A program made the translations under genes and the position numbers. Positions 20,125 through 38,090 of a DNA stretch of 64,000 bases are shown here, in pieces. The DNA lies in the NCBI GenBank assembly GCA_045633705.1, contig JAZQYV010000012.1, forward strand, positions 82,057 to 146,056. Reading direction: 5' to 3'. Origin of the DNA: Candidatus Onthoplasma sp. (lineage in GTDB: Bacteria > Bacillota > Clostridia > Christensenellales > UBA1242). Position 1 is the first letter of the stretch. Each line of letters starts with the position of its first letter. Below the pieces are notes generated by a model. That model was given only the letters and a program-made list of their open reading frames with translations, did no database searches and was not told where the DNA came from.

Positions 20125-20246
20125 ATAATTATATAAATATATAATTACTGACTTAAAGTATAAAAGTTAAGTAATCAAGCATTTATGTTTGATAAGGAAC
20201 TCTAGCAAGAGTGACAAAACCTAAAAATATCATTAAGGAGAAAATT

Positions 20247-23200
20247 ATGAAGTTGAAGAAAATTTTACTTCCAATATTTGTAGGGGTGGCAATTCTATCG
20301 TCAGCCCTTGTTGCCGTTGTGGCGGGTATTGCGATAAAGGAGAATAGGCAATCTCAGAAAGTAAGTGCTAATATTGAGGGTACTGACACTCCTGGCGCAT
20401 TTAATTTTGTGGTAATGACTATCGAAGGCGAAAATATTGCAGAGGGAGAGACTAAAACCTATTCTTGCACAGTTGGAGATAAAATTGAATACACCATATA
20501 TTATGAGGACATCGAGAGTCAATATTCTTATTCTCCGGGTACTGGCGAGGATGATGTTATGGCTTCGGTCGAAGTTGAGTATAGTAATTCGAACATTGTT
20601 GCGGATTATGGGGAATACTACCTAATTAAAGCAGCGGGCTCTTGTACAATAGAAGTATGTGCTATTGCTGAGGACAGCACTTTGTTGGCAACGATTAACA
20701 TTACGGCGGAAGAGTCTGAAGAGTCTGAAGATGGCGGGAACCCATATTTTTGGATTGAGGACTCCACCATCTATGCTGGGGAGTATCTTGATGCTTTTAT
20801 TTCGTGGGGTGCTGCGAATGATGATGGGTATCAGTATATAGAATTTTATTCTTCCGATACATCGTGTGTTGAACTTAGCCCAGGTTATAATAATGAGCTT
20901 AGTAGGGATTTTCAATATTTTGTGAATGGGTTAAAATTTGGTTCTGCGGATATAGTATTGAGAGGTAGAAGAACTTCATCAGGTTCCTGGACAACACTGG
21001 CAAGCGTAACGGTTACGGTTAAAGGACATGATCCGCTTGAGTTGGTAACAGCGGCAGAGGATAAAGGTGCTATATACTTTAATAGATTATATCACGGAAG
21101 TTCATATAATTATGAAATGCCTGACAAAAATGTTTTTGGAATCACAAATAAAACTGGATTAAATATTAAATATAGGCTTCGTAGAACCAGTATGAGAACT
21201 GGTATGAGAACCTTAGTGGGGCAATACGAGTCGTCTGCTAGAAAAACAACAGTACAATCAGTTGGAGCAGGTGTGTATAGGTTAGAATACCAGATAGAAG
21301 GTGGCGTTTATGATGACATTATTTATCAAGATTCCCCATGGATTAGATTTGAATTGGAAACAACCATTCTATTGGGTGATCCAGATGAACATGTTTCGGT
21401 AAGGGAGATAAATTCAACGTATGATGGTGAGGAGCATCAATTAATTGAGTGTGGATACAACGAAACGGATGGCGTTGTGAGATTTATACGTGAAGAAGAT
21501 TTTAATTATATAGACAATCATTCTGGGCCTTGGAGTGTGCTACCATTTTTTGAAACCGAAGCCCACACTTATGGACTATATTGGAAGCTTGATGGGGGCG
21601 AAAATTATAATGATATTTCTCCTCGGTATTTACAGGCTACAATATCTCCAGCCATGGCGAGTGTGGCTGCATCATGTGAAGCATCAATCCAATTGAAAAA
21701 GGGCGAATCGCTTGATGTTGAGATTAGTTCGGTTGGTGCGACTTTGGTAGACTGGTATTCGACTTATTTTGCAGCTGCGGAGTGTGTTATAAATTCTACA
21801 AATTCAGTAACGATTAAAGCTGGAGATGATGCTGGAACTGCGACAGTTAGATTGATTTTTGAATGGGAAAGTTCTAATTACAGTGCTGGATGTAATAATG
21901 TGCCTTGGGAAGAATACGAGCCTTATAACATACAATACTCATATTGTTATAATATACAGGTTACCGTTGTAGATGATGCCCCAGCAAATATTTCGTTATA
22001 CAAGATAGAAGATGGGGTAACTACGAGTATAAGTGGCGGAGATACGTTAAATTTGATGTATGGTAAATCTATAATAATTGGAATGACTGCAACAACGTCT
22101 AATGGTAACGCTATAGAAACTTCTTATATGAGTTCGGTAAAGGATAATTCAAAATATTTAACATTGGTTGATTCAACTTCTGCTAACAAGTTTGAAACAT
22201 CTATAGCTTGTATTAAAGTAAGCCGTAACTCTTTAGTTGTTTATTTTAATATTGCGGCTAAAAACGGAGAGTGGAGAGCAACTAGTTCATATGTGTTCAT
22301 AGAAACAATTAAGGCCGGAGGTGTTGAGGGTGGCACTGGAGGTGTGGCTGACCCTGTTGTTATAAGTATTGCAAACATTCCTGTTAATGGAATACCGGTT
22401 GGAACAAGTCTTGTCATAAATTATGAAGCAACTGGATTGGTTAACGGAGATACGGTTGATAGTATTGGAGTAAGCCACACAATTGTGGATAGTAAAGGAA
22501 AAGACGTTACAGGAACAAGTATCAGTAAATTAAACCCTGGAGTATATACAGTAACACCGGTTGCTGTTAGCAATAATTATAATTTCACTTTACAGGCTTC
22601 AACGTTAAGTATTTACCCACCAGATACTGCGGTTTTGGTTACTGGATTTGATTTGATATACACTGGCGGAAACCAAACCTTGGTAGAAGCTAGAGTGTTT
22701 AATGGGGAAAATCGCGATATATATTATTCGGTTGGAACTGAATTAAATTCAACTAATTATTCTACAGCCGGCAGCACTTCAACACCAAAGAAAACTGACG
22801 CGGGGATATATACTGTATTCTATTATATACCTGCGGTAGATGACCGTGAAGAATTTACAGGAAGTGTAACTGTTGAAATTAAGAGAGCTGATAATAGCCT
22901 TGAAATTGATACGCCAGACTTATATATTACTGGTTCGGCACAAGAATTGTTAACAATAAGACCTAAAAATGGAACTGTTTATTACAAAACCATGCAAAAC
23001 GCTACTTATAACAGCTCAGAGGCATTAAATAAAGACAATTATTCTAGCGAAGGTAGTACGGTAAAACCTACCGGTACTGAGGCTGGTACATACATTGTGT
23101 ACTATTATGTAAAAAGTAGTAACTATACAGATATTGCTGGTTGGATGTACATTACAATTAAGTCAAATGTATTTGAAAATCCAGCATTGGATATTTCTTG

Positions 23201-26200
23201 GTATGATACGGTAGATGGGGCAACTGGGCAGGCAGGAAGTGATAGTAAATTAAACTTTGCTGAAACAGCGTATGTAACCCCTATCAACATGCCAGGAGCG
23301 TCATTTGCTTACCAATGGTATTATACTGATAAGATTATAAGCGATGGAGCAGTTGTAAATTCTTTAGACAGACTAGATGGAACTGCAATAGATGGTGCAA
23401 CCTTAGCAAGATGGCTAGTTTCTGGAGAAGTGCAAGGTAAATATATTTATGCTGTGGCAGTTGTGACAAAAGCTGGATTCCATGCTATTATTGTTCATTC
23501 GCCAACAATTGGTCCTGTGAACTCAGTAGAGTATAAGATAACACTTACTCATGCGGACGGAACAAATATCAAATATATCGAAGACGGAACAAACCTCGAT
23601 TATCAATACAAGAGAGCTCCAGAAAAGTGGGAAGCTTCAATTAAATCACATGCAACAGTTGTGGAAGATTATTCAATATTGAGTGTGGATATAGAGGTTA
23701 GCCAAGGAAGCTTTATACCAACTATGACGATAAGTCAAAATGTTTTAACAATACAAGACTTAAATCATGAAAATTTAGATGCTGGAACTATTGTAACAAT
23801 AACCATTACATGTTTGGCAAAAGATGGCTATGCTAGTACAAGTATGACATTTACTATTGCTATTAAAGAATTGGGCAAGATGGAAATTGATATTCAACCA
23901 ATTACATTGTACTATGGAGAAACTGCAACACTTGTGTTTACAATGAAGGATGCGGAAGAAAATACAATAACGGCACAGGGTTATCAAACATCTCTTGACA
24001 ATAATGGCAAAACTGTTATAGTAGAAAACAATTCGTCAATGTATGTAACAATACAACAGAAAAGTTCAACAAATCCTTTTGAGTGGCAATTTTATGCCAT
24101 AAATATGCCTAAAGATGAAGTGGCAACCACGGTGGTATTTACCTTCCCTGGATACACTGAAGCTTATGACGATGTAACCATCAGTATTCTTATAGTTAAC
24201 TCTCAAGATGATTCTCAAGACACTAAAATCAAAATATTGCAAAGAGACCTTACAATTACTTCATGTGATGCTTCTAAAGATTACGATGGAACTCCGTTAA
24301 CATGTAATAGATATACTGTATCGTGGATTAAGGTTGGCGGACTTGCAAGTATTGATGGCGTTTCGGATATGTTAAACGTAACCATTACAGGTTCTCAAAC
24401 CGAATGTGGAGAATCGCCAAACACAATCAGCAGTATAAAGGTTACGCGACCTGATGGAGAAGATGTTACACACGCTTATTCGATAGTTGGGGCAAAAGAA
24501 GGGAAGCTAACTGTTAATAAAGCTAAGAATATACTAACAATCGAAAGCTCGTCGGATTTAGTATGTACAGGCAATCCTCAAGATTTATTAACTAGTGTAG
24601 AGCATATTAACAGCGATGCTGAAGATATTAAGGGGACTCCTCTTGAGAATGGCTTAGAAAAGATTGTATATTATGGATATCAAGAAATAAATTCTAATAA
24701 TTATCTTAATAACAGTATTGCAACAACTGAAATTCCTAAAGGGATACACGCCGGTACCTATAATATATATTTATATGTACCAGAAAGTAAGAACTATATG
24801 GAAATAGGTGGTGTTGTGGTTGTAGAGATTGCCCAAAACCCAACTTTACCTGTTGTGGGAAATGTTACTTTGAGTGATGTCGGTGTGGTAACTTGGACAG
24901 CTCCAACATTTATAACGCTTGGACAATTAAGTATCTCGTACACATATGAGCTAGCAGTGTTTAATGATGCTGATGAGCAAGTAGGCGAAACTATTACAAA
25001 TATAACTGAAACATCTTATGATGCAAGCGACTTAATGCTTCAATATGCTGATACATATTATGTAAAAGTGTGTGCAATCCCAGTAATTAATGGTTGTGCA
25101 GATTTTGATGTTAAATGTGTTGCAAATAGCGAATGGAAAGATTCAAATACTATTACAACATTAGAAGTTACATTTAAGGCTCAAGATGCAACAATTAATG
25201 GTCAACCTGTGGGCTATATAAAGGTCTTAAACGGAAACGAGACAAATGAAATTAAACGTATTGTAATGCCTGGGTGGACATTTAGCAGCTTGGACAATGA
25301 ATTTAAATTTGCGGGTAATCAAGATGACTACAGCTCATTTACATATTCAAATGGTCTTGTTGCACTAGTGTCAATATATCCAGTGGCAGCAATTGTTACA
25401 GGATATACAATCAGCTTTGATTATTGGCAGGCAGACAATAGCACTGCTCCAACGGTAATAACCGCATATTTTGTAGGCAATGCCAACACACTAACACTTA
25501 CAATGAAAGGAAATGCTGAAGATGTTGTGATTCCGGAAAGTGAACATTGGGCTGTTGATGGCACTGATGCAATTAAAACTGTGAATTATCAAGAAACGTA
25601 TGGAGAATTACCAACTCCAACTAGAGCAGGGTATAAATTTGAGGGTTGGTATGGTGGTAAAAATTTATTAAGTGTTAGTGGAAGAACGGTTGCCCAATTA
25701 TCTTCTGGGGGAATGAATACCGAAATAAGACAGTTTGAATTTGACAAATATTATCTTGGTTTAGCATATAATAACTATTATAGAAAAACAAGTATAACGG
25801 ATTATTCTATTAGCAATAATACAATAGTTCAAACAAATGCTTCGGGGTCTACCGGATACGGCATTGGACTACCGGTAAAAGTGAAGCCGAATACAACTTA
25901 TGTAGTATCAGCAAATTGTGAATTAGCTCAAGCGCAGTATACAAGCTCAGGTGAATACATTACCGGCGGAGTAACTTCGAAATTTACAACAGCTGAAAAT
26001 TGTGGAATTGTGGTTATTATTACGTATAATGCGGGTGGACAAACGAAGCAATTTACTAATATGCAATTAGAAGAAGGTGAAACTACTACAAGTTATACTC
26101 CGTATGTCTATACTGATGCTGATGGCAAAATTACCAGCGATAGCATAGTAAAAACTCATTACAATCATACTGTATATGCAAAGTGGACACCTATTACTTA

Positions 26201-29200
26201 TAGTGTAAAATATAATGGCAATGGTGCAACAGCGGGCGGTTCGACAGCAGAAATTATTGATACGAGAACATGGACATATGATGTTGAACAAAATTTGTGG
26301 CCTTGCTATTTTACAAAAACAAACTCAAAATTCTTGGGTTGGTCTAAAACTATAGATGCAACAGCAGCTGAGTATAATACAACCAATCCAGTGAAAAATC
26401 TAACAACAACAAACCTAGAAGTTGTCGTGTTGTATGCTGTGTGGGCTGAAAACACATATGTTGCTAATGTGTATGTTGAAAAAACATCTGGCGATGGATT
26501 TGATGCTCCACAATTGCATAACATTGCTGCCACTGCAGGACGAGTTATTCATGGTGGTAACATAGCTGCTGAAGCAAGCAAGATTACCGGAGTGGCTGTA
26601 GAAAACGGAATAAAATTTGATTACGCAAAATTTGGAAGCAAAAAGATAGGAAATATAAATGCAACACCTGTAAGTGGAGTGACATTTGAAACAAATAAAT
26701 ATTATAGTAAGATTGGCGAAGATTATTTCTTGCTAGCAAATGAGCCTACTGATTGGGCAAATCAAACATATTATACTATTTCAAATAACGACAGCACAGA
26801 ATGTTTTGTAGTTGTTAGCGATAGTACGACAATAGATTTCTACTTTATTAGACTTGAGTATAAACTAACTCTTAATGCTGGCGAACAAACAGTCATTACA
26901 ATTGATACAACTGTAACGGCTTATGAAAAAGACAAATATTATACTCTTAACCAGACCACTGGGGAATATAATTTAATTTCAAGCAAACCTCAAGATTGGG
27001 GAACGGAAGGATTTAATGTATATATCATAATTGTTCCAACATTTGCAGCTGAAACTGGTTGGACAAAAGTAAGCAACCAAGCTATTTGGAGGGAATATAA
27101 TTATGGTTTAATATATGGTCAATTGCCACAACCTTCAAAAGCGGGCTACGAATTTAAGGGTTGGAGCACTAATGCTGCAGCAACCGAGGCAGATGCTTCA
27201 ATTACAGCTGATACAACCATGGGAACAAGCGATGTTACGCTATATGCGGTTTGGAGCGCTGTGAAATATATTGTTTCGTTTAATACCGAATACAACAAAG
27301 TTGACACAAGTTTCTTAATATTTAAGGCGGATACATATTACACATTTGATAGTGCAACTAAGCAATTTGTATTGCTAACATCACAACCAGCTGATTGGGG
27401 AAGTGCTACCTATTATATTAAAGAGGAATTAACCGTTCCAGCTTCAAAAGATGTGGATTATGCCACACCATATGGCGAGTTGCCAACTCCAACACGTCCT
27501 GGATACACTTTTGAATCATGGAATACTTTGCCAGACGGAAAAGGATCAACAATAAAAGATGTTACACTTGTAAGCATTGTTGGAAATCATACTATATATG
27601 CTCAGTGGATAGCTAATATTTATAATGTAACATTTGAAGAATATGGATATGACGAAGAACCTGCAGATGTTAAAGTTGTGTTTGGTAGACCTTATGCTGA
27701 AGCTTATAACGAGGAAAATCCTTTAACCAATAAAGGATTGCCTGAAATTGGAAATACAGGTTACACACTTGTAGGTTGGAGGATTAAGGAAACCGGCCAA
27801 GATATAACCATAATTGATATAAACAATAACATTTATAAAATAGGTGATGATATTGCGGTAGTGTCATATGTTGGCGACCATACATTAATATATTTGTGGG
27901 AAGCAAAAGACGATATCATTGTTACAGCCAATGCGGGAGATGGAACAATGCCAGAAACTGAAGGTTGGACCGGCAGTGGAGCAACAGCAACCAAAGCGGT
28001 GGTATATGGTCAATCATATGGATTATTACCAGAACCAAGTCGTGAAGGTTATACATTTATAACATGGGCAACAATTGATGCAAGCTCCGATGAAGAGGTT
28101 GAAATAGATAGTGATTCATACGTGTTAAATGCTTACAACCATGAGATTTATGCAAAGTGGGAAGCAAACACATATACGGTAACTGCAGATGCTAATGGCG
28201 GAACAATTCCAACAACTGATGGCTGGACAGGCAGTGGAGAAACTGCAACCAAATCAGTAACATATGACCAAGAATACAGCACATTGCCAACACCAACTCG
28301 AGAAGGTTATGAATTTGATGGTTGGTATGGAAAAAACTTATTTAATATTAATAATTTAGTTGAAACTGAAGATATTATAAAAAATCAAGATAAAAGCATA
28401 ACAGTAAAAGCATATCCTAGTAGAACAGCTAGCAAGTTGGGTGAATTATGCCCAGAATTAAAGGCGGGGCAGAGTATCGTATTTTCTTTTGTTACAACAG
28501 GTTATGGTCAGATATATTTGTATAATGTGGAAAGTGGGTTTAACACATATTTTACAAACGGCTACCAACATATTGTTACCGAAGAGATGTTGGGAAGTGT
28601 GGTGTATTTTTATAGGCAAACATCAGCACAAGGTGGTGGAAGTGCAACCATTAAAAACATCCAAATAGAATTAGGCGAAGTTAAAACAAAATATGCTCCT
28701 TATGTTTATGTGGGTAATGATGGAAAAATTAGCAGTGATAGCCTAGTAAAAACTCCTTACGACCATACATTGTTTGCTAAATGGAATGCTAGAACAGATA
28801 TTGTTTTAACAGCTGATGCTAATGGCGGAACAATACCAGTGACTACAGGTTGGAGTCCTGCAGGTTCAACTGAAACAAAAACCAAATCAGTAACGTACAA
28901 CCAAGCATATGGAACATTACCAACCCCAACACGAGATGGATATACATTTAAAGGCTGGTGGACCGGGAATGGCATTAGTTCGTGGGGAGATGAAGTAAAA
29001 GATACAACCGTTGTGACTAACGCTGCAAACCACACTATTTATGCAAAGTGGGATATTAATAATTATGTATTAACTGCAGATGCAAATGGCGGAACAATTC
29101 CAACAACCGATGGTTGGACAGGGACTGGAGCCACTGCAACCAAATCAGTAACATTTGGTGAAAGCTACGGCGCGTTGCCAACACCAGTATTGGAAGGATA

Positions 29201-32200
29201 CAGCTTCTTGGGTTGGTTCACGGAAAAAGATGGCGGAACAGAAGTGAACCATCAAAACAAAATGAGTGCAGCTGATGTAACAATTTATGCTCACTGGGAG
29301 ATTAATGGATATACATTAACATTTGAAGGCAATGGAACTTTAATTGATGGCGAATGTGCAGATATCGAATTTGAAACTGGCGAAACTTGTAAAAAGGTAG
29401 TTACTAAACTTTATAACGAAGTGTATGGTGATCTTCCTAATGTTACAAGAACAGGATACCTATTTAGGGGCTGGAACACACAAGCAGACGGTAATGGCGA
29501 TACTGTTACCAAGGACGATATTATGCCTGCAAACAACGTAACAGTCTACGCTGTGTGGGAAATTAAAAAGGTTACAGTAGTTATCCGCAATTTATCTGGA
29601 ACATCAGATGAAGGTCAAGTTGTCGTAAACGGCAGTACTGTTGCGATTGCAAACTCGAACAATTATGGCTCCAGCGTTGAATATCATTTTAATGACAAGA
29701 TAACCCTAGGCACTATTAATGGAATTTACAATTACAACTTTAAAAAGTGGATACGAGTAACTGATATTAATAATATTAATATGGCAAATGTGGAAGAAAT
29801 TTCTAATACATACTCAATAACCGATGAAGATTGCGGCAACACAACAATTTATTTAGTAGCTTGTTATAAGTATTATATAAAAGTTAGTGCATTAAGCAAT
29901 TATGTTGGTGGCACGACAATAGGTGGAACTGTTAAAGCTTATAATGGAGATACAAACAACATTTCGGCATCATCGCATTACGAGGGTTGGTATCAAAACC
30001 AAACAACAACAACCAATACTATGGTTGCGAGTCCTAAGAATGGATATAAATTTATGGGCTGGTACACAACTTCTCCATACAAAAATTACGAAGAAAACAG
30101 ACTTTCACAAGATATAAGTTATAACTATAATATGTGGCAAGTAAAGATGAATAAAAGTCAACCATCTAACACGAGCTACGGAGACTATAATTATGAATAT
30201 AGTTATATTGAATATTATGCACTATTCTTAAGTGAAACAACACTTACAATTAATCCTAATGAAGGATATGTGTTATTGCCTGCCGAGCCACAAGATTGGA
30301 ATGAGGCGTGGACAAACTATTACAAGTTGGAAAATGGAGAATATGTACAATTGACTTCTATTTCAGCTCCAAAGTTTGCAAATGACACATATTATAGTTT
30401 GACAGCAGTAAGCCTCACGGGTGTTTATAATGAAACATTAATAATACCTGACCCAATTAGAGAAAATTATACATTTACAGGCTGGGGATATGATTCGGCA
30501 AAAGCAACATTCGATGATTCAAACAAGTTATATACTTTTGGAACCAATGATGTTGAGTTTATAGCTCAATACAATATAAATACTCAAAGCCTAACAATTA
30601 ATTACAGCCAAGAACTAAGCAATGCTACTGTTTATAGTGATATTAATATATCAACAACAAATAGCGATTGTACTATTTCATCAACAACAATTAATGTTAA
30701 TGGAAGCTCGGTTGTTAAACATGACTACAACGATAATATAGAGATTTCTATCAACTTTGAGCCATCAACTAATTATAAGGTATATATTGATATTGGTAAT
30801 GATGGTATTATAGATAATGATGAAGAGTTAACAAATCAACCATATGTATGGACACCAAATCAAGACACTGAAATAACTGTGTATCTTGTGCAATATCATT
30901 TAATATACAAGATAAGTATTGAAGAAGGAATTGCAAGCGCTTGGATTGATGTTTATAAAGATGTTACAAATCCAGAAACTATCGTTGAAGGAAATATAAC
31001 ACAAAGTTACTATGTAATAAATGGTTATGATATTGTATTTAATGCAATTGCTTTAGAAGGATATGATAATATTGTATGGGAAGGTGTAAGCTTTACAAGA
31101 GATAATATTGTTGAAAATGTAAACAAACAACATAATAGTATCAAAGTGCACGCAGAACCTATTAAATACATATTAACAGCTGATGCAACTGCAGATGGGC
31201 TATATCCTGATGCAGAAATTGATATAAGTACCCTTCCTAATGGATGGAATGTGTCGCAAGATATGAAAACAGCAACAAAAGAAGTTGCTTATACCAAAGG
31301 GTATGGAATTTTACCAAGCTCTGTTTTGGCAGGTTATGCATTCTCATATTGGACTGATGCAAATGACAATCAAGTAAATAGTATAACTAAAATGATTATT
31401 GGTGGTGCAACCATTTATGCAAACTATTCTGCAAATACTTATAAAGTTAAATACGCAAGCAACAAACCTAGTGGAGCAAGCACTGAAATTGTGGGAAGCA
31501 TGCAAGATGATGAGTTTGTGTATGGTGTAAAACACAACTTAAGTAAAAACGCATACTCCTTGCTAGGCTACACATTCACAGGTTGGGACGAGGTTTCTAG
31601 CGGAATCAATAAATATGCAGATAGAGCGCAAGTTAGCAACCTAACAACTGGTGAAGAAATCATATTATATGCACAATGGCGCAAGAATGTTTATTTTGTT
31701 AAGTATGATAGCAATGGTGGCGAAGGAGAAATGACTCAAACAAGGTGTACTTATGATACATACTTTACTTTAAATCCAAATGCATATACAAAAACAGGAT
31801 ACATATTTGATAGTTGGAATACTGAAATAGATGGTAAAGGAAAATCATATAATGATGAGGAAACATTAATAAATCTTACTGCTGAAGAAAATGCAGAAAT
31901 TATACTATATGCTCAATGGGTGGCAGATAAGTATAAAGTAACAGCTAATGCAAATGGCGGAACAATTCTTTCAACTGAAGGCTGGACCGGTAGCGGAACA
32001 ACTGCAACCAAAATGGTTACTTTTAATTCATATTATGGATTGCTTCCAACTCCGGGAAGAATAGGATACTCATTTATAGGTTGGAACACAGCAGAAGATG
32101 GGACTGGTACTTTAATAACTCAAGAAACTAAAGTTTATTTAGCAGAAAATCATACATTGTATGCACAATGGTCTACAGATGAATATACAGTAACACTTAA

Positions 32201-35200
32201 TTACCAAGGCGGAACTGACAACAAATTGAACCACACATTGAATAATGAGTCTACTATTATAGATTATACATATGAAAGCGGAGATATTGGAAAGTATAGT
32301 AGCAATTCTCCTATAACAGTTGAAATTAGTGACAATGCATTTAATGGCGAAAAGAGTTTAAGTTATACAATCTTATCAGACAACAATAATGGAACCGCAC
32401 TATATTATGTTGGCTTATTGCCGGCTGGTGCATATAAGCTAAGTGCATATGTACAATTAGCGCAAGCTGGCAGACTAAATGTTTATCAATTAAGAAGTGC
32501 TGATTGGACTGGTTCACACTTCGTTAACAGACTTGTTCAACCAAATATTTGGCATTATGTAGAAGGTGAGTTTACAGTTGCTGAGGGTGATGGAAAAATT
32601 GATATATTCTTCTATGGTGACGTAGGTACAACATATTATATTGATGATGTAATGCTAACTCGCACTGATAGCAATAGTGAAAACCCAACATATGATTATG
32701 ACATAATCACTCCTGAAACCAAGTTGCCTTATGCGGCAAAACCGGGACATACATTCCTAGGTTGGAACACTGAATCAGATGGAAGCGGAAACTGGGTAAC
32801 AAGTTATAAAGGAACAGATTTAAAGACCGTTACTTACTATGCAATTTACGAGAAATCTCGTGCAAGTGTTAAGGTAGATAGCGACACAACAATTAACTTT
32901 AACAGTACAGATGTTACATTAACTGCATCTATTACAAATAATGTAACTGTTGATAATTATCAATGGCAAATCAGTACTGATGGAAACAACTTTAGCGATA
33001 TAGCAGAAGCAACAAGTAGCACGTACATTCATAAGAAAGATTCTAAAGATATTGGAACATATTATTATAGATGTGTAGTGACTCAAAACGGACTTGTAAA
33101 GAAAGCAGATGGTCAAGGAACAACACAATACGAGGGCAATAAACTTGAAACAACATCAAATTATGTAACTGTTGTAGTAAACAAAACCACTACGACCAAT
33201 GCAACATTAACAAGCAGTGTTACCGAATATGAGTATGGTAATGATGAGTCGTTTAATAATTTTGTAGAAGCTGCTATACAAACATACGACAAGGTAAATT
33301 ATCAGCCAGAAAGAGCTTATACAGCAGCAGATAACAATATTACAATAACTTATTATTATAATAACGTTAACAATAATTACGGTGGAACGGCTTGGAACGG
33401 AATGACTGCTACAGCACTTGATGCAGGAACATACTATATGTATGCCGAAATAAGAGGAAGCATAAATTACTACGATATTATTACCCAAACAATGCAATTT
33501 ACTGTGGCTAAGGGTAATATGGTTATAACAATAACCAGTCAACATGGCGTAACTCCAGAAGTTGAAAATGGTATAATTGTAGGATTCAGCAAAGTATATG
33601 ATGGTGAGGAAATGCCTCTATTTGTATCAGCTGATATTGCAACAACGTTAAGCTACGGCACAACTGATAGCTATGGAACTACTTTAAATCCAAATGCTAA
33701 TGCTATCACTCAAATTGGTGGACAAACTAATACTACTGGTGTAACTGGTGTTACATATTACTATAAGTTTACCGCACCTAACTACAATGATGTGATTGGC
33801 CAAGTTACATTAAAAATTACGACCAAATCGGTTAAAGTAGAGTGGGAAGTTGATTCTAGCTACACTTATAATGGTCAAGTTCAAGTTGTTAAGGCATACA
33901 TTTTAGACACCGACAACACTACCAGAATATATTGTGATGTAACATTTACTGGACAAGATACAATCTTTAAAGATGCAGGAACGTATACAGCACATGCGAC
34001 ATTGGCAGATGCTGACTATACACTAACTGATGCAACTTATGAAGGAATTGTGATTGGTAAATATGCAGTTACAATTGCCGCAAATGATGCAAGTATGCAA
34101 TATGGTGATAGTGCTCCAGAATTTACTGCTGACATTACACCAGACCCATTTGATGCTTATAATATGGTATACACTATAAAGAACGAACAAAATCAAGATG
34201 TTACTGCTAAGATTTCAGAACAAAATATTGGAACTTATACAATACATCCTTCAAGTGATTTGTCGCAGAATAATTATAGTATAAAATACGAAATAGCAAA
34301 ATTAACAATTGATAGATGTATTTTAACCCAAACCAACACTCAAATTGGTGAAATTCCTGACCAAACATATATTGCTGATGAGATAACACCAATTCCTGAA
34401 ATAGCAATTCTGCTTGGCTGTGGCAAAACAGTTTCGTTAAATAATTTAACTGACTTTAGCTGTGAATATACAAATAATATTAATGTAGGAACAGCAACTA
34501 TTACTATAACCGGTACAGGAAATTATGATGGAACAATTAGCACAACATTTAACATTGTTTCAAAAGGAATTTATAAGCCAACCACGGTAACCAGAGAATT
34601 CTATTATGATGGAACTGAAAAGGTTATTACCGGTGATGACTTGAATGTATTTGATAGCAACATAATGGTGATTAGGCCAGTTGTTGAAAATTCAAATATT
34701 GGCGACAGATTTACTGACGTTGGCAAGTATAAAGTTGTAGTAGGTTTGAAAGATACAACAAACTTTAAGTGGATTGATGACACAACTGCTGATGTTGAAA
34801 TAGATTGGGAAATTAATAAAGCCAATACCATTTTGACAATTAATCCAAAAGATATAACAATGTATCTAGGACAAACAACTACATTTAGCGCAAAATTAAC
34901 TTATAGCACAAACAACGGCGTTTCAACTACTGCCACTGGTGCAATTACTGCAATTTCCGATTATGCAACAATAACCGCAAAAGAAGTTGGAGGAAAAGTA
35001 TTTAACGAAGGTATTGCAACAATTGAGGTTAAGGCAGATAAACGAAGTGTGAACGAAACTCAGACAATTATAGTAACATATGCTGGTGATAAAAACCATA
35101 ATGGCTCGACTGAAACATTTACTTTATTAATTCCAACAATTACTATTAATATTGTTGATGAAAACAATAATGATGTTTCTGATAAGTTTACAATTACAGG

Positions 35201-36428
35201 CGTTGAAAACAACCAAAACAACGAAGTTTCTATTGGTTCAGAGATTTCATTAAGTGCAGATAAACTTGGCAATAATGTAGGACTATTAAGTTACAAGCTT
35301 CCAGGTGAAGATATTGTTTATAACAACACATCAATTACTGAAGAATACACAATTGAACAAATTAGCGTAATCGAAGAATTAATTGATAAGACAGATAAAA
35401 AGGTTGTTGTTGAAGTTAAACTTGATAGCATTGTTGACTTTAAAGTAAACATCAATGACCAAGATGGAGCATTGGGAACACCGGACGTTACAACTTCAGT
35501 TGATGGAAATGTTTCTGTGGCTCGTTCATTTGATGATGGATTGTTAAAAGTGTTTGAAAGCTCAACTATTCAGCTTAATACAACTGCAAGTATTATTAAT
35601 GGGCAATATTATGCTGTTAAGAACATTGACATCAATGGTTACACATTGCAAGGTCCAACGGTAGCATCAGAATTAACATTCAGTAAACAATCATTGATTA
35701 ATGATGAGGTTTATAATGAAACTGGTGAAAATATTATTACAATTGATGCATCAAAGATATTTGACGCGGAGACTAAAGTGTTGAAAGACACCAAAAATGA
35801 AACAATTGCAACTATGGATATAGTTGATATATCTAACAATAATACAGTATTGGTTGATACAAATGACATACCAACAGACACAATTTCTGATGACACTGCA
35901 TTTGTAATCGAAAATGCTACGGTTAATTATGTGATAACCGAAAATAATTCAGGCTATGGTTTCGTAGGAATTAAGATATATGATGAGGCTGCTGGCACAA
36001 CAGTAACCAAAGCAAAAGGTCAGCTAAATGCCCACGATTGGACATTTGGTAATACAACCCATGTATGGAATAAGCAACCATTTACTAAAGCATTATCTGA
36101 AGCGCAAGCAGTAGTGCTATACAAGTGGTTTAATCCAAACACCACATCAACTAGCCCAATTACGGTTAGTATGCCAGAAAGTGGCGTTGGCGCCGAATTG
36201 AAAAACTTTGATACTGGATATTCTTATGCTTTGTCTAATACGTTATTTACTGGCACAAACTCTCAACCTATGTTTGAGGGCGAATGGCAAGTTAATATAA
36301 CTCAAGGACAAGGAATTACAGCAACAATACAAATAACTTATGTAAATGGTTCAACTGAAAGATTTAGTGCTGGAGATAAATTTGAAATTAACTCTAACGT
36401 TAAATCAGTAGCAATTACCATTGCCTAA
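20247..36428 (+). CDS. giant (~5,393 aa) N-terminally anchored, repeat-rich surface protein
   Basis: Single uninterrupted 16.2-kb ORF. SD AAGGAG 20236-20241 and ATG 20247 (the track starts at GTG 20211). N-terminal hydrophobic anchor KILLPIFVGVAILSSALVAVVAGIAI. The N-terminal third is Ig-like (Big_2-like). It also has MBG-like segments with Y-D-G-T/AGTY motifs. About 18 Listeria-Bacteroides-type repeats are present (...Y-G-x-L-P-x-P-T-R-x-G-Y-x-F-x-G-W...Y-A-x-W). A CBM_4_9-like module ends in YYIDDVMLTR. There is no LPXTG or other recognisable C-terminal anchor. Confidence 0.9.
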   Translation: MKLKKILLPIFVGVAILSSALVAVVAGIAIKENRQSQKVSANIEGTDTPGAFNFVVMTIEGENIAEGETKTYSCTVGDKIEYTIYYEDIESQYSYSPGTGEDDVMASVEVEYSNSNIVADYGEYYLIKAAGSCTIEVCAIAEDSTLLATINITAEESEESEDGGNPYFWIEDSTIYAGEYLDAFISWGAANDDGYQYIEFYSSDTSCVELSPGYNNELSRDFQYFVNGLKFGSADIVLRGRRTSSGSWTTLASVTVTVKGHDPLELVTAAEDKGAIYFNRLYHGSSYNYEMPDKNVFGITNKTGLNIKYRLRRTSMRTGMRTLVGQYESSARKTTVQSVGAGVYRLEYQIEGGVYDDIIYQDSPWIRFELETTILLGDPDEHVSVREINSTYDGEEHQLIECGYNETDGVVRFIREEDFNYIDNHSGPWSVLPFFETEAHTYGLYWKLDGGENYNDISPRYLQATISPAMASVAASCEASIQLKKGESLDVEISSVGATLVDWYSTYFAAAECVINSTNSVTIKAGDDAGTATVRLIFEWESSNYSAGCNNVPWEEYEPYNIQYSYCYNIQVTVVDDAPANISLYKIEDGVTTSISGGDTLNLMYGKSIIIGMTATTSNGNAIETSYMSSVKDNSKYLTLVDSTSANKFETSIACIKVSRNSLVVYFNIAAKNGEWRATSSYVFIETIKAGGVEGGTGGVADPVVISIANIPVNGIPVGTSLVINYEATGLVNGDTVDSIGVSHTIVDSKGKDVTGTSISKLNPGVYTVTPVAVSNNYNFTLQASTLSIYPPDTAVLVTGFDLIYTGGNQTLVEARVFNGENRDIYYSVGTELNSTNYSTAGSTSTPKKTDAGIYTVFYYIPAVDDREEFTGSVTVEIKRADNSLEIDTPDLYITGSAQELLTIRPKNGTVYYKTMQNATYNSSEALNKDNYSSEGSTVKPTGTEAGTYIVYYYVKSSNYTDIAGWMYITIKSNVFENPALDISWYDTVDGATGQAGSDSKLNFAETAYVTPINMPGASFAYQWYYTDKIISDGAVVNSLDRLDGTAIDGATLARWLVSGEVQGKYIYAVAVVTKAGFHAIIVHSPTIGPVNSVEYKITLTHADGTNIKYIEDGTNLDYQYKRAPEKWEASIKSHATVVEDYSILSVDIEVSQGSFIPTMTISQNVLTIQDLNHENLDAGTIVTITITCLAKDGYASTSMTFTIAIKELGKMEIDIQPITLYYGETATLVFTMKDAEENTITAQGYQTSLDNNGKTVIVENNSSMYVTIQQKSSTNPFEWQFYAINMPKDEVATTVVFTFPGYTEAYDDVTISILIVNSQDDSQDTKIKILQRDLTITSCDASKDYDGTPLTCNRYTVSWIKVGGLASIDGVSDMLNVTITGSQTECGESPNTISSIKVTRPDGEDVTHAYSIVGAKEGKLTVNKAKNILTIESSSDLVCTGNPQDLLTSVEHINSDAEDIKGTPLENGLEKIVYYGYQEINSNNYLNNSIATTEIPKGIHAGTYNIYLYVPESKNYMEIGGVVVVEIAQNPTLPVVGNVTLSDVGVVTWTAPTFITLGQLSISYTYELAVFNDADEQVGETITNITETSYDASDLMLQYADTYYVKVCAIPVINGCADFDVKCVANSEWKDSNTITTLEVTFKAQDATINGQPVGYIKVLNGNETNEIKRIVMPGWTFSSLDNEFKFAGNQDDYSSFTYSNGLVALVSIYPVAAIVTGYTISFDYWQADNSTAPTVITAYFVGNANTLTLTMKGNAEDVVIPESEHWAVDGTDAIKTVNYQETYGELPTPTRAGYKFEGWYGGKNLLSVSGRTVAQLSSGGMNTEIRQFEFDKYYLGLAYNNYYRKTSITDYSISNNTIVQTNASGSTGYGIGLPVKVKPNTTYVVSANCELAQAQYTSSGEYITGGVTSKFTTAENCGIVVIITYNAGGQTKQFTNMQLEEGETTTSYTPYVYTDADGKITSDSIVKTHYNHTVYAKWTPITYSVKYNGNGATAGGSTAEIIDTRTWTYDVEQNLWPCYFTKTNSKFLGWSKTIDATAAEYNTTNPVKNLTTTNLEVVVLYAVWAENTYVANVYVEKTSGDGFDAPQLHNIAATAGRVIHGGNIAAEASKITGVAVENGIKFDYAKFGSKKIGNINATPVSGVTFETNKYYSKIGEDYFLLANEPTDWANQTYYTISNNDSTECFVVVSDSTTIDFYFIRLEYKLTLNAGEQTVITIDTTVTAYEKDKYYTLNQTTGEYNLISSKPQDWGTEGFNVYIIIVPTFAAETGWTKVSNQAIWREYNYGLIYGQLPQPSKAGYEFKGWSTNAAATEADASITADTTMGTSDVTLYAVWSAVKYIVSFNTEYNKVDTSFLIFKADTYYTFDSATKQFVLLTSQPADWGSATYYIKEELTVPASKDVDYATPYGELPTPTRPGYTFESWNTLPDGKGSTIKDVTLVSIVGNHTIYAQWIANIYNVTFEEYGYDEEPADVKVVFGRPYAEAYNEENPLTNKGLPEIGNTGYTLVGWRIKETGQDITIIDINNNIYKIGDDIAVVSYVGDHTLIYLWEAKDDIIVTANAGDGTMPETEGWTGSGATATKAVVYGQSYGLLPEPSREGYTFITWATIDASSDEEVEIDSDSYVLNAYNHEIYAKWEANTYTVTADANGGTIPTTDGWTGSGETATKSVTYDQEYSTLPTPTREGYEFDGWYGKNLFNINNLVETEDIIKNQDKSITVKAYPSRTASKLGELCPELKAGQSIVFSFVTTGYGQIYLYNVESGFNTYFTNGYQHIVTEEMLGSVVYFYRQTSAQGGGSATIKNIQIELGEVKTKYAPYVYVGNDGKISSDSLVKTPYDHTLFAKWNARTDIVLTADANGGTIPVTTGWSPAGSTETKTKSVTYNQAYGTLPTPTRDGYTFKGWWTGNGISSWGDEVKDTTVVTNAANHTIYAKWDINNYVLTADANGGTIPTTDGWTGTGATATKSVTFGESYGALPTPVLEGYSFLGWFTEKDGGTEVNHQNKMSAADVTIYAHWEINGYTLTFEGNGTLIDGECADIEFETGETCKKVVTKLYNEVYGDLPNVTRTGYLFRGWNTQADGNGDTVTKDDIMPANNVTVYAVWEIKKVTVVIRNLSGTSDEGQVVVNGSTVAIANSNNYGSSVEYHFNDKITLGTINGIYNYNFKKWIRVTDINNINMANVEEISNTYSITDEDCGNTTIYLVACYKYYIKVSALSNYVGGTTIGGTVKAYNGDTNNISASSHYEGWYQNQTTTTNTMVASPKNGYKFMGWYTTSPYKNYEENRLSQDISYNYNMWQVKMNKSQPSNTSYGDYNYEYSYIEYYALFLSETTLTINPNEGYVLLPAEPQDWNEAWTNYYKLENGEYVQLTSISAPKFANDTYYSLTAVSLTGVYNETLIIPDPIRENYTFTGWGYDSAKATFDDSNKLYTFGTNDVEFIAQYNINTQSLTINYSQELSNATVYSDINISTTNSDCTISSTTINVNGSSVVKHDYNDNIEISINFEPSTNYKVYIDIGNDGIIDNDEELTNQPYVWTPNQDTEITVYLVQYHLIYKISIEEGIASAWIDVYKDVTNPETIVEGNITQSYYVINGYDIVFNAIALEGYDNIVWEGVSFTRDNIVENVNKQHNSIKVHAEPIKYILTADATADGLYPDAEIDISTLPNGWNVSQDMKTATKEVAYTKGYGILPSSVLAGYAFSYWTDANDNQVNSITKMIIGGATIYANYSANTYKVKYASNKPSGASTEIVGSMQDDEFVYGVKHNLSKNAYSLLGYTFTGWDEVSSGINKYADRAQVSNLTTGEEIILYAQWRKNVYFVKYDSNGGEGEMTQTRCTYDTYFTLNPNAYTKTGYIFDSWNTEIDGKGKSYNDEETLINLTAEENAEIILYAQWVADKYKVTANANGGTILSTEGWTGSGTTATKMVTFNSYYGLLPTPGRIGYSFIGWNTAEDGTGTLITQETKVYLAENHTLYAQWSTDEYTVTLNYQGGTDNKLNHTLNNESTIIDYTYESGDIGKYSSNSPITVEISDNAFNGEKSLSYTILSDNNNGTALYYVGLLPAGAYKLSAYVQLAQAGRLNVYQLRSADWTGSHFVNRLVQPNIWHYVEGEFTVAEGDGKIDIFFYGDVGTTYYIDDVMLTRTDSNSENPTYDYDIITPETKLPYAAKPGHTFLGWNTESDGSGNWVTSYKGTDLKTVTYYAIYEKSRASVKVDSDTTINFNSTDVTLTASITNNVTVDNYQWQISTDGNNFSDIAEATSSTYIHKKDSKDIGTYYYRCVVTQNGLVKKADGQGTTQYEGNKLETTSNYVTVVVNKTTTTNATLTSSVTEYEYGNDESFNNFVEAAIQTYDKVNYQPERAYTAADNNITITYYYNNVNNNYGGTAWNGMTATALDAGTYYMYAEIRGSINYYDIITQTMQFTVAKGNMVITITSQHGVTPEVENGIIVGFSKVYDGEEMPLFVSADIATTLSYGTTDSYGTTLNPNANAITQIGGQTNTTGVTGVTYYYKFTAPNYNDVIGQVTLKITTKSVKVEWEVDSSYTYNGQVQVVKAYILDTDNTTRIYCDVTFTGQDTIFKDAGTYTAHATLADADYTLTDATYEGIVIGKYAVTIAANDASMQYGDSAPEFTADITPDPFDAYNMVYTIKNEQNQDVTAKISEQNIGTYTIHPSSDLSQNNYSIKYEIAKLTIDRCILTQTNTQIGEIPDQTYIADEITPIPEIAILLGCGKTVSLNNLTDFSCEYTNNINVGTATITITGTGNYDGTISTTFNIVSKGIYKPTTVTREFYYDGTEKVITGDDLNVFDSNIMVIRPVVENSNIGDRFTDVGKYKVVVGLKDTTNFKWIDDTTADVEIDWEINKANTILTINPKDITMYLGQTTTFSAKLTYSTNNGVSTTATGAITAISDYATITAKEVGGKVFNEGIATIEVKADKRSVNETQTIIVTYAGDKNHNGSTETFTLLIPTITINIVDENNNDVSDKFTITGVENNQNNEVSIGSEISLSADKLGNNVGLLSYKLPGEDIVYNNTSITEEYTIEQISVIEELIDKTDKKVVVEVKLDSIVDFKVNINDQDGALGTPDVTTSVDGNVSVARSFDDGLLKVFESSTIQLNTTASIINGQYYAVKNIDINGYTLQGPTVASELTFSKQSLINDEVYNETGENIITIDASKIFDAETKVLKDTKNETIATMDIVDISNNNTVLVDTNDIPTDTISDDTAFVIENATVNYVITENNSGYGFVGIKIYDEAAGTTVTKAKGQLNAHDWTFGNTTHVWNKQPFTKALSEAQAVVLYKWFNPNTTSTSPITVSMPESGVGAELKNFDTGYSYALSNTLFTGTNSQPMFEGEWQVNITQGQGITATIQITYVNGSTERFSAGDKFEINSNVKSVAITIA
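25490..32855 (+). repeat. array of ~18 Listeria-Bacteroides-type (Flg_new-like) coding repeats inside the giant gene
   Basis: Recurring ...GWTGSGATATK.V.Y...YG.LP.PTR.GY.F.GW...IYA.W units. Several copies share long nearly identical nucleotide stretches (e.g. 28181-28270 vs 29073-29162). Confidence 0.75.
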
Positions 36429-36464
36429 AACCATAGTGTATCAAAGATTAATATTATATTAGCT

Positions 36465-36509
36465 TGATGATGCAGAGGGGGCAAAACCCCTCTGGCGCAA
36501 GCTTCATCA
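36465..36509 (+). other. G+C-rich stem-loop just after the giant gene stop, without a U-tract
   Basis: CAGAGGGG (36473-36480) / CCCCTCTG (36487-36494), 6-nt loop. Possibly extended by TGATGA 36465-36470 / TCATCA 36504-36509. Confidence 0.4.
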
Positions 36510-36510
36510 G

Positions 36511-36538
36511 TTGATATATTTATATCTATTGATATAAT
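36511..36538 (+). promoter_or_regulatory. promoter candidate for the orphan RNA (extended -10)
   Basis: TTGATA 36511-36516, 16-bp spacer, TGaTATAAT 36530-36538. Confidence 0.55.
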
Positions 36539-36544
36539 AAATTG

Positions 36545-36803
36545 GCACAACCTTAAGTTAAGCGATTAATATTAGGGAGTGCAACTTGTGATAGCGCGAA
36601 TAAGGCATTTGAAGTGAGGGGACTTCAATAAATAACATTATTCCAACCAATAATGAAAAATGTTATCCAACCATAACAATATGGTGTTAGCCTTACGCCA
36701 AGGATTTGTCGCTTGACCTTAACAAAGCGATAGCACCGAGTTTGGTGCTGGGTTAGTTTGACCTGAAACAAACTAAAAGGAGGACATTTGTCCTCCTTTT
36801 TTG
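36545..36803 (+). ncRNA. candidate structured non-coding RNA of unknown class (~260 nt)
   Basis: Bounded by its own promoter and intrinsic terminator, with no SD-led ORF. Multiple nested helices were found by eye, including two adjacent hairpins with identical CCAACC loops (36636-36655 and 36661-36678). Long-range pairings are 36553-36565/36709-36722 and 36596-36606/36690-36698. Confidence 0.5.
36776..36803 (+). terminator. intrinsic terminator of the RNA candidate (could also serve the convergent minus-strand ORF)
   Basis: AAAGGAGGA (36776-36784) / TCCTCCTTT (36791-36799), loop CATTTG, followed by a T-run. Confidence 0.8.
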
Positions 36804-36863
36804 ATATATTATTATTTAATAACAACCATAATTTCAACACTTAATCAGAAGCAAGCCAGCATG

Positions 36864-37130
36864 TCAATGTTTTAATTTTTGATATAAATGTTTTAAGCGG
36901 TCGTATTTAAGTTTTAATTGCAGATACTTTTCAGTTTGCTCTTGCTGAACCTTTTCACGCAATAGGGTTAATAGGCCTTTAAATAAAGAAGTTATGTCTT
37001 TATCCTGAATGCGTGATGGAATTGTAAAAATTTTTATATGCTCGAGAGTTGAAAGTGGCTTTAGTTTTACCAATATATCTTGTTTTAAAATAGGTTTAAA
37101 ATTATTTGTATTTATTGCTGTATTAATCAT
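36864..37130 (-). CDS. hypothetical protein (88 aa)
   Basis: Open frame in an otherwise stop-rich AT spacer with K/L/E-rich helical-looking sequence. No SD, and the start is only 6 nt from the divergent ORF start. Confidence 0.45.
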   Translation of the reverse strand: MINTAINTNNFKPILKQDILVKLKPLSTLEHIKIFTIPSRIQDKDITSLFKGLLTLLREKVQQEQTEKYLQLKLKYDRLKHLYQKLKH

Positions 37131-37136
37131 AAGTTA

Positions 37137-38090
37137 ATGATTAACCAATTTTGTAAATATATACTAGCAATAAACAATATCGACAATAATTGCATATATA
37201 ATAATGTGCAATTATATTTATATTCAAGTCAAGATTTAATAATGAGGGGAGATAGCACTTTTAATATTAGGGCTAATACTGTTTATTGGCTAAATTTGGC
37301 GCAAGATCAAATAATATATATTTATAGCACCAGTTGCTGTGGCTGCATTATTTTAAATAAAGAAATAATAGACAACCAATTGCACAGCCAAATAATATTT
37401 CATCGAATAAATGACAACACGTTGCTGTGTGAGATAAAGCCATTTGTTGACTATGAACCCACAATAGAATATGCTATATGCAATAGAGTTGTAAAACTTT
37501 GCAGCAACACTAACACAACCAATATATATGTTGACGGAAAACATTTCGCAACACTTGACTGTGAGTCGGGTAATACAAAGATTAAAAAGATTGAAAAAGA
37601 GAATGAAGAGGTTGGAATATTAGAAATTGGTGGTCACCATAAACACATAATATTATTTAGTAACAAAGGAATAGAATATTGTGGACATTGTTATGACTAT
37701 GAAATCTTAAATGATAGAATTCAAATATATCGACACAACTCCAATATATTCAATTTAGGACAGCTAATTATTTACAATTTTAAAACAAAGGAATTAGAGT
37801 ATAAGCAGGTGGCCGACAGAGGTGACGAACAAATACTAATTAATAAAGATTTTTGTTTGATATATTTTGTAGATGCAATCAAATGTGGTCGATACAAATA
37901 CGCGTATAATTTACTTTCGTATGAATTAAAATCAATAATAAATATTGCTACCATTAAAAAGTATTTTCCACAATTCGATAATTGTATTTATTTGCAAAAT
38001 CAAGATGTATTTATTATGATTAATAATAAAAAAATTGTTGGAATATATAATATTAAAATTAAAAATAATTTAATAAATAATATATATTAA
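37137..38090 (+). CDS. hypothetical protein (317 aa, soluble, moderately Cys-rich)
   Basis: Long ORF with no TM or signal peptide and no motif I recognise. The start is uncertain: there is no SD at 37137 and the next Met is at 37242. Confidence 0.6.
   Translation: MINQFCKYILAINNIDNNCIYNNVQLYLYSSQDLIMRGDSTFNIRANTVYWLNLAQDQIIYIYSTSCCGCIILNKEIIDNQLHSQIIFHRINDNTLLCEIKPFVDYEPTIEYAICNRVVKLCSNTNTTNIYVDGKHFATLDCESGNTKIKKIEKENEEVGILEIGGHHKHIILFSNKGIEYCGHCYDYEILNDRIQIYRHNSNIFNLGQLIIYNFKTKELEYKQVADRGDEQILINKDFCLIYFVDAIKCGRYKYAYNLLSYELKSIINIATIKKYFPQFDNCIYLQNQDVFIMINNKKIVGIYNIKIKNNLINNIY

Follow-up and report, generated by a model that had tools for sequence, protein, structure and literature searches.

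A conserved structured RNA behind a giant surface-protein gene in Candidatus Onthoplasma

In Clostridia, the non-coding RNA raiA, also named ModT, is 215-260 nt long, is transcribed from a SigA promoter, ends at an intrinsic terminator, has a fold of many helices with two pseudoknots, and exerts its effect in trans through an unknown mechanism (PMC11706538). With regard to size and complexity, this raiA motif RNA (RF03072) is the closest described Clostridia RNA to the subject of the present study, namely a structured RNA predicted from the plus strand at positions 36589-36803 of a 64,000-nt stretch of Candidatus Onthoplasma sp. DNA (contig JAZQYV010000012.1, positions 82,057 to 146,056; the window in the following), where it lies behind a surface-protein gene of about 16 kb. 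The two RNAs differ, however, in their conserved sequences and in the order of their helices, and there was no model match at E <= 10. Furthermore, whereas raiA represents a free-standing locus that is present in >2,500 species, the RNA described here is found in about ten Onthoplasma-like metagenome-assembled genomes (MAGs), fused to the 3' end of the giant gene.

RoxS/RsaE, a small RNA (sRNA) of Firmicutes, carries repeated C-rich unpaired regions that represent redundant seeds (PMC4409812). The present RNA would be a functional analogue in so far as it, too, shows one short C-rich motif at several unpaired places. Unlike the CCCC/UCCC motifs of RoxS/RsaE, which are of the anti-Shine-Dalgarno type, its motif CCAACC is not complementary to GGAGG, the two show no similarity in sequence, and the RsaE model gave no match. 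RoxS itself is 115 nt long and is not known to have pseudoknots. In the CsrB/RsmZ sponges, identical short loop motifs are likewise displayed on several unrelated hairpins, in a copy number that varies by species; the way of display is hence similar, but the motif is GGA in the sponges and CCAACC here, where only one to three copies are present.

With respect to genomic position, a comparison is provided by sRNAs that derive from 3' untranslated regions (3' UTRs), such as CpxQ, SroC, DapZ and FimR2 of the E. coli fimbrial operon, all of which follow directly after a stop codon, use the terminator of the mRNA and are conserved above their surroundings. These proteobacterial RNAs of 50-100 nt arise from an internal promoter or by processing, are linked to Hfq or CsrA and carry a linear seed; FimR2 originates from an adhesin locus. 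The present RNA resembles them in that it lies on the same strand as the upstream gene, adjoins its stop codon and has a common terminator with it (9/9 full-length relatives; a 160-nt gap separates the two in the window). It differs from them in its length of ~210 nt, its multi-branch domain, its tandem pseudoknots and its Firmicute lineage, and its release from the mRNA is a proposal.

Finally, the preQ1-I, SAM-II and guanidine-III aptamers as well as the pseudoknots of viral 3' UTRs follow the order S1a-L1-S2a-L2-S1b-L3-S2b with an A-rich L3, and the viral 3'-UTR pseudoknot or exonuclease-resistant domains also occur as tandem copies. The predicted fold of the present RNA has the topology of these H-type aptamers and would have the tandem copies and the 3'-UTR position in common with the viral cases. 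Unlike the aptamers, it matches no model and has no regulated downstream open reading frame (ORF). From our point of view, there is about an even chance, judged by sequence comparison, that the element is a regulatory RNA with a multivalent loop motif, which either forms part of the 3' UTR of the giant gene or is derived from it.

Evidence for a conserved RNA family

Ten distinct full-length sequences, including that of the window, and one partial sequence were found, all of them from gut MAGs that carry the label Candidatus Onthoplasma or "Clostridia bacterium" (Christensenellales). Conservation is confined to 36589-36803. The gap behind the giant gene of the relatives aligns with this segment, and does so much more closely than is the case for the neighbouring protein: identity amounts to 63-85% between the RNA homologues, compared to 42-51% for the adjacent 317-aa-type protein. 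Since MAFFT misaligns the variable hairpins, the structural alignment was built by hand, with N as padding, and every row was checked as a real subsequence of its locus; in the regions of the helices Pd, Pe and Pf (see below), the MAFFT alignment agrees with it. Across this alignment, 97.4% of the 533 cells that belong to the 60 proposed pairs show standard pairing and 26 pairs change on both sides, values that are reached by 0/500 shuffles. As a control, the 3' partners were slid by 1-3 columns, upon which 33-44% of the cells were paired.

The segment 36545-36803, which includes a leader in front of the conserved core, folds with -80.4 kcal/mol compared to -54.2 +/- 4.3 kcal/mol for dinucleotide shuffles, of which 0/200 reach this stability (z = -6.1). 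A comparable z was obtained with the minus strand, so fold energy alone cannot pick the strand. The proposed pairs can, however, as they contain 40 G-U but 3 A-C cells, as the proportion of standard pairing would drop to 90.4% were the minus strand the RNA, and as the hairpin Pe varies through wobble pairs. Judged by this pairing pattern, the RNA is the plus strand. No reading frame is open across the homologues, the longest stop-free stretches measuring 11-64 codons in frames that differ from one homologue to the next, and whole hairpins are gained or lost among them, which speaks against a coding sequence. The G+C content amounts to 0.37-0.43 within the RNA and to 0.21-0.31 directly downstream. 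A preliminary description of the window, made from the sequence alone, had proposed a structured non-coding RNA on this strand that is richer in G+C than its flank and had pointed to related genomes as the place to look for homologues and compensatory changes. Both were found there, and together with the fold energy, the excess of G-U pairs and the lack of a conserved frame they confirm the proposal.

The same description had noted no signature of tmRNA, RNase P, SRP, 6S, T-box or a common riboswitch. In line with this, Rfam 15 at gathering thresholds (with raiA, 6S, SRP, RNase P, T-box, riboswitches, ribozymes and RsaE covered) gave 0 matches in the 64-kb window and 0 in nine relatives, and the matches that appeared in these sequences at E <= 10 were all noise, either terminator-driven or to microRNAs. 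ARAGORN reported 0 tRNA or tmRNA genes in the window, and a literature search on CCAACC-loop sRNAs found none. We conclude from the sequence comparisons that 36589-36803 belongs to a real family of conserved, structured RNAs which is not represented in Rfam and of which no description was found in the literature. A diversity-generating retroelement was considered, given the position of the RNA behind a surface-protein gene, and rejected, as there is no long direct repeat (variable or template repeat, VR/TR) between the gene end and the downstream DNA and no reverse transcriptase domain in the neighbouring proteins; a type III toxin-antitoxin system, a retron and an omega-RNA were dismissed because the required protein genes or repeats are lacking.

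The distribution of the family was followed by a scan of 185,579 GTDB species genomes, one per species, with a 22-base pattern derived from invariant positions. The scan returned six true loci, three of them new (L014, L017, L018) and three of them copies of known sequences (L015, L019, L021), which are labelled Candidatus Onthoplasma sp. or Clostridia bacterium and belong to the order Christensenellales; four further matches, all in high-GC genomes, were due to chance. Among metagenome contigs of the Joint Genome Institute (JGI), the pattern gave 29 matches, all spurious (GC 41-65%, no similarity), and among viral contigs a single spurious one. Seven of the high-GC JGI contigs (L024, L025, L028, L029, L032, L036, L049) match the pattern with the same 46-nt span in the absence of any similarity to the RNA; they probably have a conserved gene segment in common, which happens to fit the pattern. 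A BLAST search of the region against plasmid and phage collections gave no match. With a covariance model of the RNA's 3' domain (R1), one copy per locus was detected at 84-101 bits, and no second copy was present in the window or in the loci. As the scan pattern was strict, the apparent distribution represents a lower bound. As far as could be searched, the family appears to be confined to Onthoplasma-like Christensenellales from animal guts.

Structure of the RNA and its CCAACC loops

The conserved 5' domain (36589-36698, plus strand) opens with UGAUA in the window, and the core opens with UGACAGCG in the relatives, where conservation sets in abruptly with an invariant UGAYAGCG just after the stop codon. 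Two invariant helices, P1 (GCG 36594-96 / CGC 36696-98) and P2 (UAAGGC 36601-06 / GCCUUA 36690-95), enclose up to three hairpins. The first of these, Pa (36609-28), has the loop GAGGGG in the window and NAGGGG across the family and shows both-side changes in six pairs. The other two both carry a CCAACC hexaloop in the window, with three such pairs in Pb (36636-55) and eight in Pc (36661-78). Pa and Pb are dispensable and can be missing (L018, L007), and Pb can have other loops (GCAA in L010, UUU in L017); Pc with its CCAACC loop is present in 10/10 RNAs.

The 3' half is made up of two proposed pseudoknot modules with a hairpin between them. In module 1 (36699-36731), the stem S1 pairs AGG 36701-03 with CCU 36717-19 and crosses the helix Pd, in which GUCGCUU 36708-14 pairs with AAGCGAU 36725-31; the loop reads GA-CCU-UAACA. 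In Pd, both-side changes are seen in three pairs. S1 pairs in every sequence (100%), and L007 has one A-U pair replaced by G-C. The hairpin Pe (36732-36749; AGCACC / GGUGCU) is 100% paired as well. Its 3' strand GGUGCU and the following GGG are invariant while the partner strand varies between C and U and between A and G, so that its changes are one-sided only and proceed through G-U (U-G in 4 sequences, G-U in 9). In module 2 (36750-36775), S1 pairs GGGU 36750-53 with ACCU 36761-64, the helix Pf pairs UAGUU 36754-58 with AACUA 36771-75, and the loop reads G-ACCU-GAAAC. Four pairs of Pf change on both sides. RNAalifold proposed the S1 stem that crosses it (GGGC/GCCU). This stem, too, pairs in every sequence (100%), and it shows one U-A in place of C-G (in the window) and one change from G-U to G-C (L014). 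The 3' half thus probably consists of two tandem H-type pseudoknots of the same predicted design, each with an S1 of 3-4 bp and with a conserved loop, GA-CCU-nAACA in the one and RG-GCCU-GnAAC in the other, for which G-R-CCU-n-AAC is the common form.

Two further pairings were considered. A possible closing helix between 5' UURUG and 3' AACAY is 85% paired in one register, with registers that are inconsistent and no covariation, and a second one, between 5' UGACA and the junction GUGUUA, was rejected, as by inspection it fails in 4/10 sequences. As to the fold drawn in the preliminary description, all five of its hairpins (36609-28, 36636-55, 36661-78, 36732-49, 36754-75) are backed by conservation or covariation, its P2 (36596-36606 / 36690-98) is conserved and corresponds to P1 and P2 of the present model, and its pairing of TCGCTT 36709-14 with AAGCGA 36725-30 is conserved, too. 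Its P1 (36553-65 / 36709-22) did not hold, as the 5' arm falls within a stretch that is found only in this genome; nor did the mutually exclusive folds that it derived from AAGCGA 36560-65, since this partner is located in the non-conserved leader.

The twin CCAACC loops had already been noticed by eye and turn out to be a conserved hallmark of the family. There are 1-3 of them per RNA and 21 in the 10 RNAs, 18/21 being followed by A, and they are located on various hairpins, including the terminator loop (L009, L010, L012, L014, L018) and, in L017, the hairpin that replaces the terminator. Other tight CCAACC-loop hairpins do not occur in the window beyond background. GGUUGG is found nowhere within the RNA itself, so any base-pairing partner of the loops must be in trans. 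As the motif remains unaltered although its position shifts among unrelated hairpins, its pattern of occurrence points to specific recognition by a trans factor, which may be an RNA or a protein.

Linkage to the giant gene and organisation of the locus

In all nine full-length relatives, the core begins 3-26 nt past the stop codon of the giant gene, on the same strand and with a common terminator. In L011, a relative of the 317-aa gene, the giant gene is missing at this position and so is the RNA. Taken together with the single copy per locus, this arrangement indicates that it is the giant gene with which the RNA travels, rather than the small ORF or the 317-aa gene farther downstream. As read from these loci, the RNA of the relatives is the 3' trailer of the giant gene and uses that gene's terminator.

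In the window, the stop codon and the core are 160 nt apart. The insert, which has no counterpart in the relatives, comprises a hairpin, a promoter and a 44-nt leader. The hairpin after the stop codon (36462-36510, plus strand; core CAGAGGGG 36473-80 / CCCCTCTG 36487-94; fold -41.7 kcal/mol) is G+C-rich, has no U-tract, and is specific to this genome, being missing from all relatives. It is followed by a sigma-70-type promoter (36511-36538, plus strand) with TTGATA at 36511-36516, a 16-nt spacer, TATAAT at 36533-36538 and TG at 36530-31, which matches 11/12 consensus positions plus an extended -10 and is the top-scoring site within 36000-37500. Transcription is predicted to start near 36545, giving a lone transcript of ~255 nt. 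Upstream of the core in the nine full-length relatives (up to 250 nt scanned), no promoter of 10/12 or better was found, but only sites of 8-9/12 at inconsistent positions. The intrinsic terminator (36776-36803, plus strand; AAAGGAGGAC / GTCCTCCTTT at 36776-36799, then a T-run to 36802) lies 64 nt beyond the stop codon of the convergent small ORF and looks bidirectional, given the A's upstream and the T's downstream. At the corresponding position, 9/10 sequences have a canonical terminator and L017 has a CCAACC-loop hairpin without a U-tract.

Both the near-consensus promoter and the strong terminator are hence located where the preliminary description had placed them. Its notion of an orphan promoter-to-terminator unit holds for this genome but not for the nine full-length relatives, in which the RNA directly follows the stop codon and lacks such a promoter. 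Since the insert brings both a hairpin and a near-consensus promoter, the RNA is, by prediction, probably also made alone in this genome.

The 5' leader (36545-36588, plus strand) is not conserved, forms a local hairpin (-15.2 kcal/mol) and holds the 5' arm of the P1 helix of the preliminary description. Its first part (36545-36565, ACAACCTTAAGTTAAGCGA) weakly resembles the last codons and the stop codon of the giant gene in L009 (ATAACGATAAGTTAAGCAA, L009 3377-3400), and this weak similarity might mean that the leader is what remains of an older gene end. A direct repeat with 15/18 identical positions, TTGATATATTTATATCTA (36511-36528) and TTGATATATTATTATTTA (36801-36818), exactly brackets the promoter-to-terminator unit; it could be the trace of a rearrangement that brought the separate promoter, or chance in AT-rich DNA. 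The possibility that the 160-nt insert is a repeated mobile element was rejected, as neither the window nor the loci contain a second copy.

The giant gene (20247-36428, plus strand; ~16 kb, 5,393 codons from the ATG at 20247, with frame and start verified) encodes a surface protein with Flg_new / MBG repeats, with Pfam MBG_2 detected in the window and Flg_new plus MBG_2 in the orthologues. It is preceded by a good promoter-like site TTGACT-N18-TATAAT near 20096-20125, a leader of ~120 nt and AAGGAG-N7-ATG at 20247, and the GTG start at 20211 given in the ORF list is probably too early. In the relatives, the gene order is giant Flg_new/MBG gene, gap, small minus-strand ORF, 294-aa gene and P-type ATPase. 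The convergent small gene of the window (36864-37130, minus strand; 88 aa) belongs to the genomic context and lies outside the RNA. Its protein is conserved with 86-95 aa in an alignment of 10 homologues (consensus MINxA..KPILKQ..IF.MPS.I.D.DI.AMF.GLL.L.REK.QQEQTEKYL.LKLKY.RLK.LY) and gave no match to any Pfam or NCBIfam family. The small ORF also occurs without the RNA, namely in L011, where it is located beside a gene for a SpoIVB-type peptidase.

The 317-aa gene (37137-38090, plus strand, as called from the ATG at 37137) encodes a protein with 22 homologues at 42-51% identity, the named ones being from gut MAGs labelled "Clostridia bacterium"; the 23 members of this family match no Pfam or NCBIfam family. 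A block that is common to all relatives by the start of the small ORF (upstream of the 294-aa gene in L003-L011; 37131-37223 in the window) contains, in this order, TTGACA-N17-TATACT, TAAAAACAAAAAAA and GCATATATAATAAT / GTGCAATTRTAT, and provides the 317-aa gene with its own conserved promoter. As this block falls inside the ORF when it is called from ATG 37137, the true start is probably near GTG 37204. In the AF2 model, the first 22 residues have a predicted local distance difference test (pLDDT) score below 50. The block also harbours ATATAAT-N9-ATTATAT, an inverted repeat that could be an operator or a 5' hairpin. Overall, the AlphaFold model is confident (pLDDT 84.8, predicted template modelling score (pTM) 0.82) and shows an N-terminal part rich in beta structure as well as a short helical segment and, at the C-terminus, a small beta domain. 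When compared with the PDB, it gave only weak propeller-like matches (TM below 0.2), none of them informative and none with a hint of RNA binding; the protein may, going by this model, represent an undescribed fold family.

Possible functions and significance

If the element is a regulatory RNA with a multivalent loop motif, as we are about evenly inclined to believe, the 3' UTR of the giant gene would contain or set free a stable RNA. The proposed double-pseudoknot domain, which is almost invariant, would then serve as a nuclease-resistant or protein-binding core, and the variable 5' domain would present one to three identical CCAACC(A) loops for multivalent binding to a partner in trans. Candidates for such a partner would be an RNA with (U)GGUUGG or an RNA-binding protein, and the interaction would couple another process to the expression of the giant gene. 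A number of points weigh against this interpretation. The alignment was fitted by hand to the structure, with the hairpin stems aligned outward from the loops, which inflates the covariation counts of Pa, Pb and Pc; the sample amounts to just 10 sequences, all of them from one narrow clade; a single compensatory event stands behind each pseudoknot; no GGUUGG site lies near any start codon in the 64-kb window; and a purely cis role for the giant mRNA matches the synteny equally well.

Such a cis-acting 3'-UTR element could protect the 16-kb mRNA from 3' exonucleases or RNase, or could localise or anchor it; the RNA would then have no target in trans, and the promoter in the window would be incidental or recently acquired. 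The idea draws on the core abutting the stop codon in every full-length relative and using the gene's sole terminator, on the absence of a usable promoter in the relatives, on the loss of the RNA together with the giant gene in L011 and on the single copy per locus. However, a terminator hairpin by itself is normally enough for 3' protection, and the invariant unpaired nucleotides together with the relocatable, repeated CCAACC loop suggest specific recognition. In addition, the hairpin and the 11/12 promoter that split the RNA from the gene in the present genome suggest usefulness of a lone RNA. We regard a role restricted to cis as the main rival of the regulatory interpretation, although a clearly less likely one.

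It has further been speculated, in the preliminary description, that CCAACC pairs with GGUUGG at the Gly-Trp codons of the repeats in the giant mRNA, in which case an independent sRNA would regulate this mRNA. The enrichment that underlies the idea is real, as GGTTGG occurs at 43 sites compared to 16.5 expected (64 kb, both strands), and the sense strand of the giant gene alone has 19 of them, of which 15 are in-frame Gly-Trp of the repeat motif. The RNA is also tethered to this very mRNA in the relatives, and the partner of the loops must be in trans. The enrichment, however, is accounted for by the protein repeat F-x-G-W. GGT does seem to be used in excess before TGG (15/23 compared to 31% overall, p = 8e-4), but the GGT:GGC ratio at Gly-Trp sites (22:12) equals the baseline ratio of 335:191 (window and partial orthologues pooled, compared with other genes), and the apparent excess reflects avoidance of GGA, so that GGU is not selected at these sites. 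GGA precedes TGG in 2/37 cases in giant genes and in 1/7 cases in other genes; it is the commonest Gly codon in giant genes and makes up about a third of Gly codons in others, yet it is strongly avoided before Trp. This avoidance is a codon-pair bias of the lineage that has no relation to the RNA. Moreover, a 5' U that would extend the pairing to CCAACCA is present at 4/19 sites only. The last 2.3-3.6 kb of the giant gene contain no GGUUGG in the window and no GGT Gly-Trp in L007, L009, L010, L012 and L017, which are comparably short fragments. A 6-nt match is weak, and beyond this 6-mer nothing speaks in favour of the pairing, so that the idea is without support and regulation of the giant mRNA in this manner seems improbable. 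An RNAduplex calculation of the RNA against the 5' UTR of the giant gene gave a long, meaningless duplex and was discarded.

One could also imagine a new class of complex RNA, in which the pseudoknot core has a function of its own (ligand binding, catalysis, or a block to RNase J/R that leaves a stable mRNA fragment) while the CCAACC and the Shine-Dalgarno-like NAGGGG loops engage cellular RNA. We give this combination little chance, slightly less than the pairing with the giant mRNA. In many bacteria, the 3' tail of 16S rRNA reads GGUUGGAUCACCUCCUU. It could be a target, as CCAACC is complementary to the start of this tail and AGGGG to the anti-Shine-Dalgarno sequence. Were this true, the 3' end of the giant mRNA would hold a module that binds 30S, and the 16S 3' tail of Onthoplasma would be expected to read GGUUGGAUCACCUCC and not GGCUGG.

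It appears even less probable that the element is a ligand-sensing RNA, whose tandem pseudoknot aptamers control the terminator and thereby read-through across the small ORF in antisense and from there on to the 317-aa gene. Known small riboswitch aptamers share the H-type topology, and the two similar pseudoknots, their invariant loop and junction nucleotides and the terminator directly after them would be in keeping with such a function. Nevertheless, the next gene is convergent, and the following plus-strand gene has a promoter of its own, for which reason we also rejected the idea that the RNA is the leader of the 317-aa gene. The terminator sequences vary, no covarying anti-terminator partner was seen in a visual check of the ten homologues, and no riboswitch model matched even at E <= 10. 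Least probable of all, from our point of view, is a self-processing or RNase-guiding element, that is, a new ribozyme or a structure directing cleavage after the stop codon and thus releasing a stable RNA: the abrupt onset of conservation with UGAYAGCG, the wealth of pseudoknots and the need for separation from a 16-kb mRNA in the relatives would suit it, but no ribozyme family matched and ordinary processing of the RNase Y or RNase J type fits the same facts.

Overall, the value of the present RNA is that of a solid lead and not of a discovered mechanism, in a clade that is narrow and uncultured. There are few well-supported structured RNA families of ~200 nt in which pseudoknots occur together with unpaired nucleotides that are invariant, and past ones proved to be ribozymes, riboswitches or the cores of ribonucleoproteins. 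The natural variation within the family, with hairpins gained and lost, CCAACC moved to terminator loops and one genome with a separate promoter, already sketches a mutational map of the RNA. Finally, its tie to a 16-kb surface-protein gene in poorly known gut Christensenellales raises a testable question, namely how bacterial cells deal with giant mRNAs or signal that these are being expressed.

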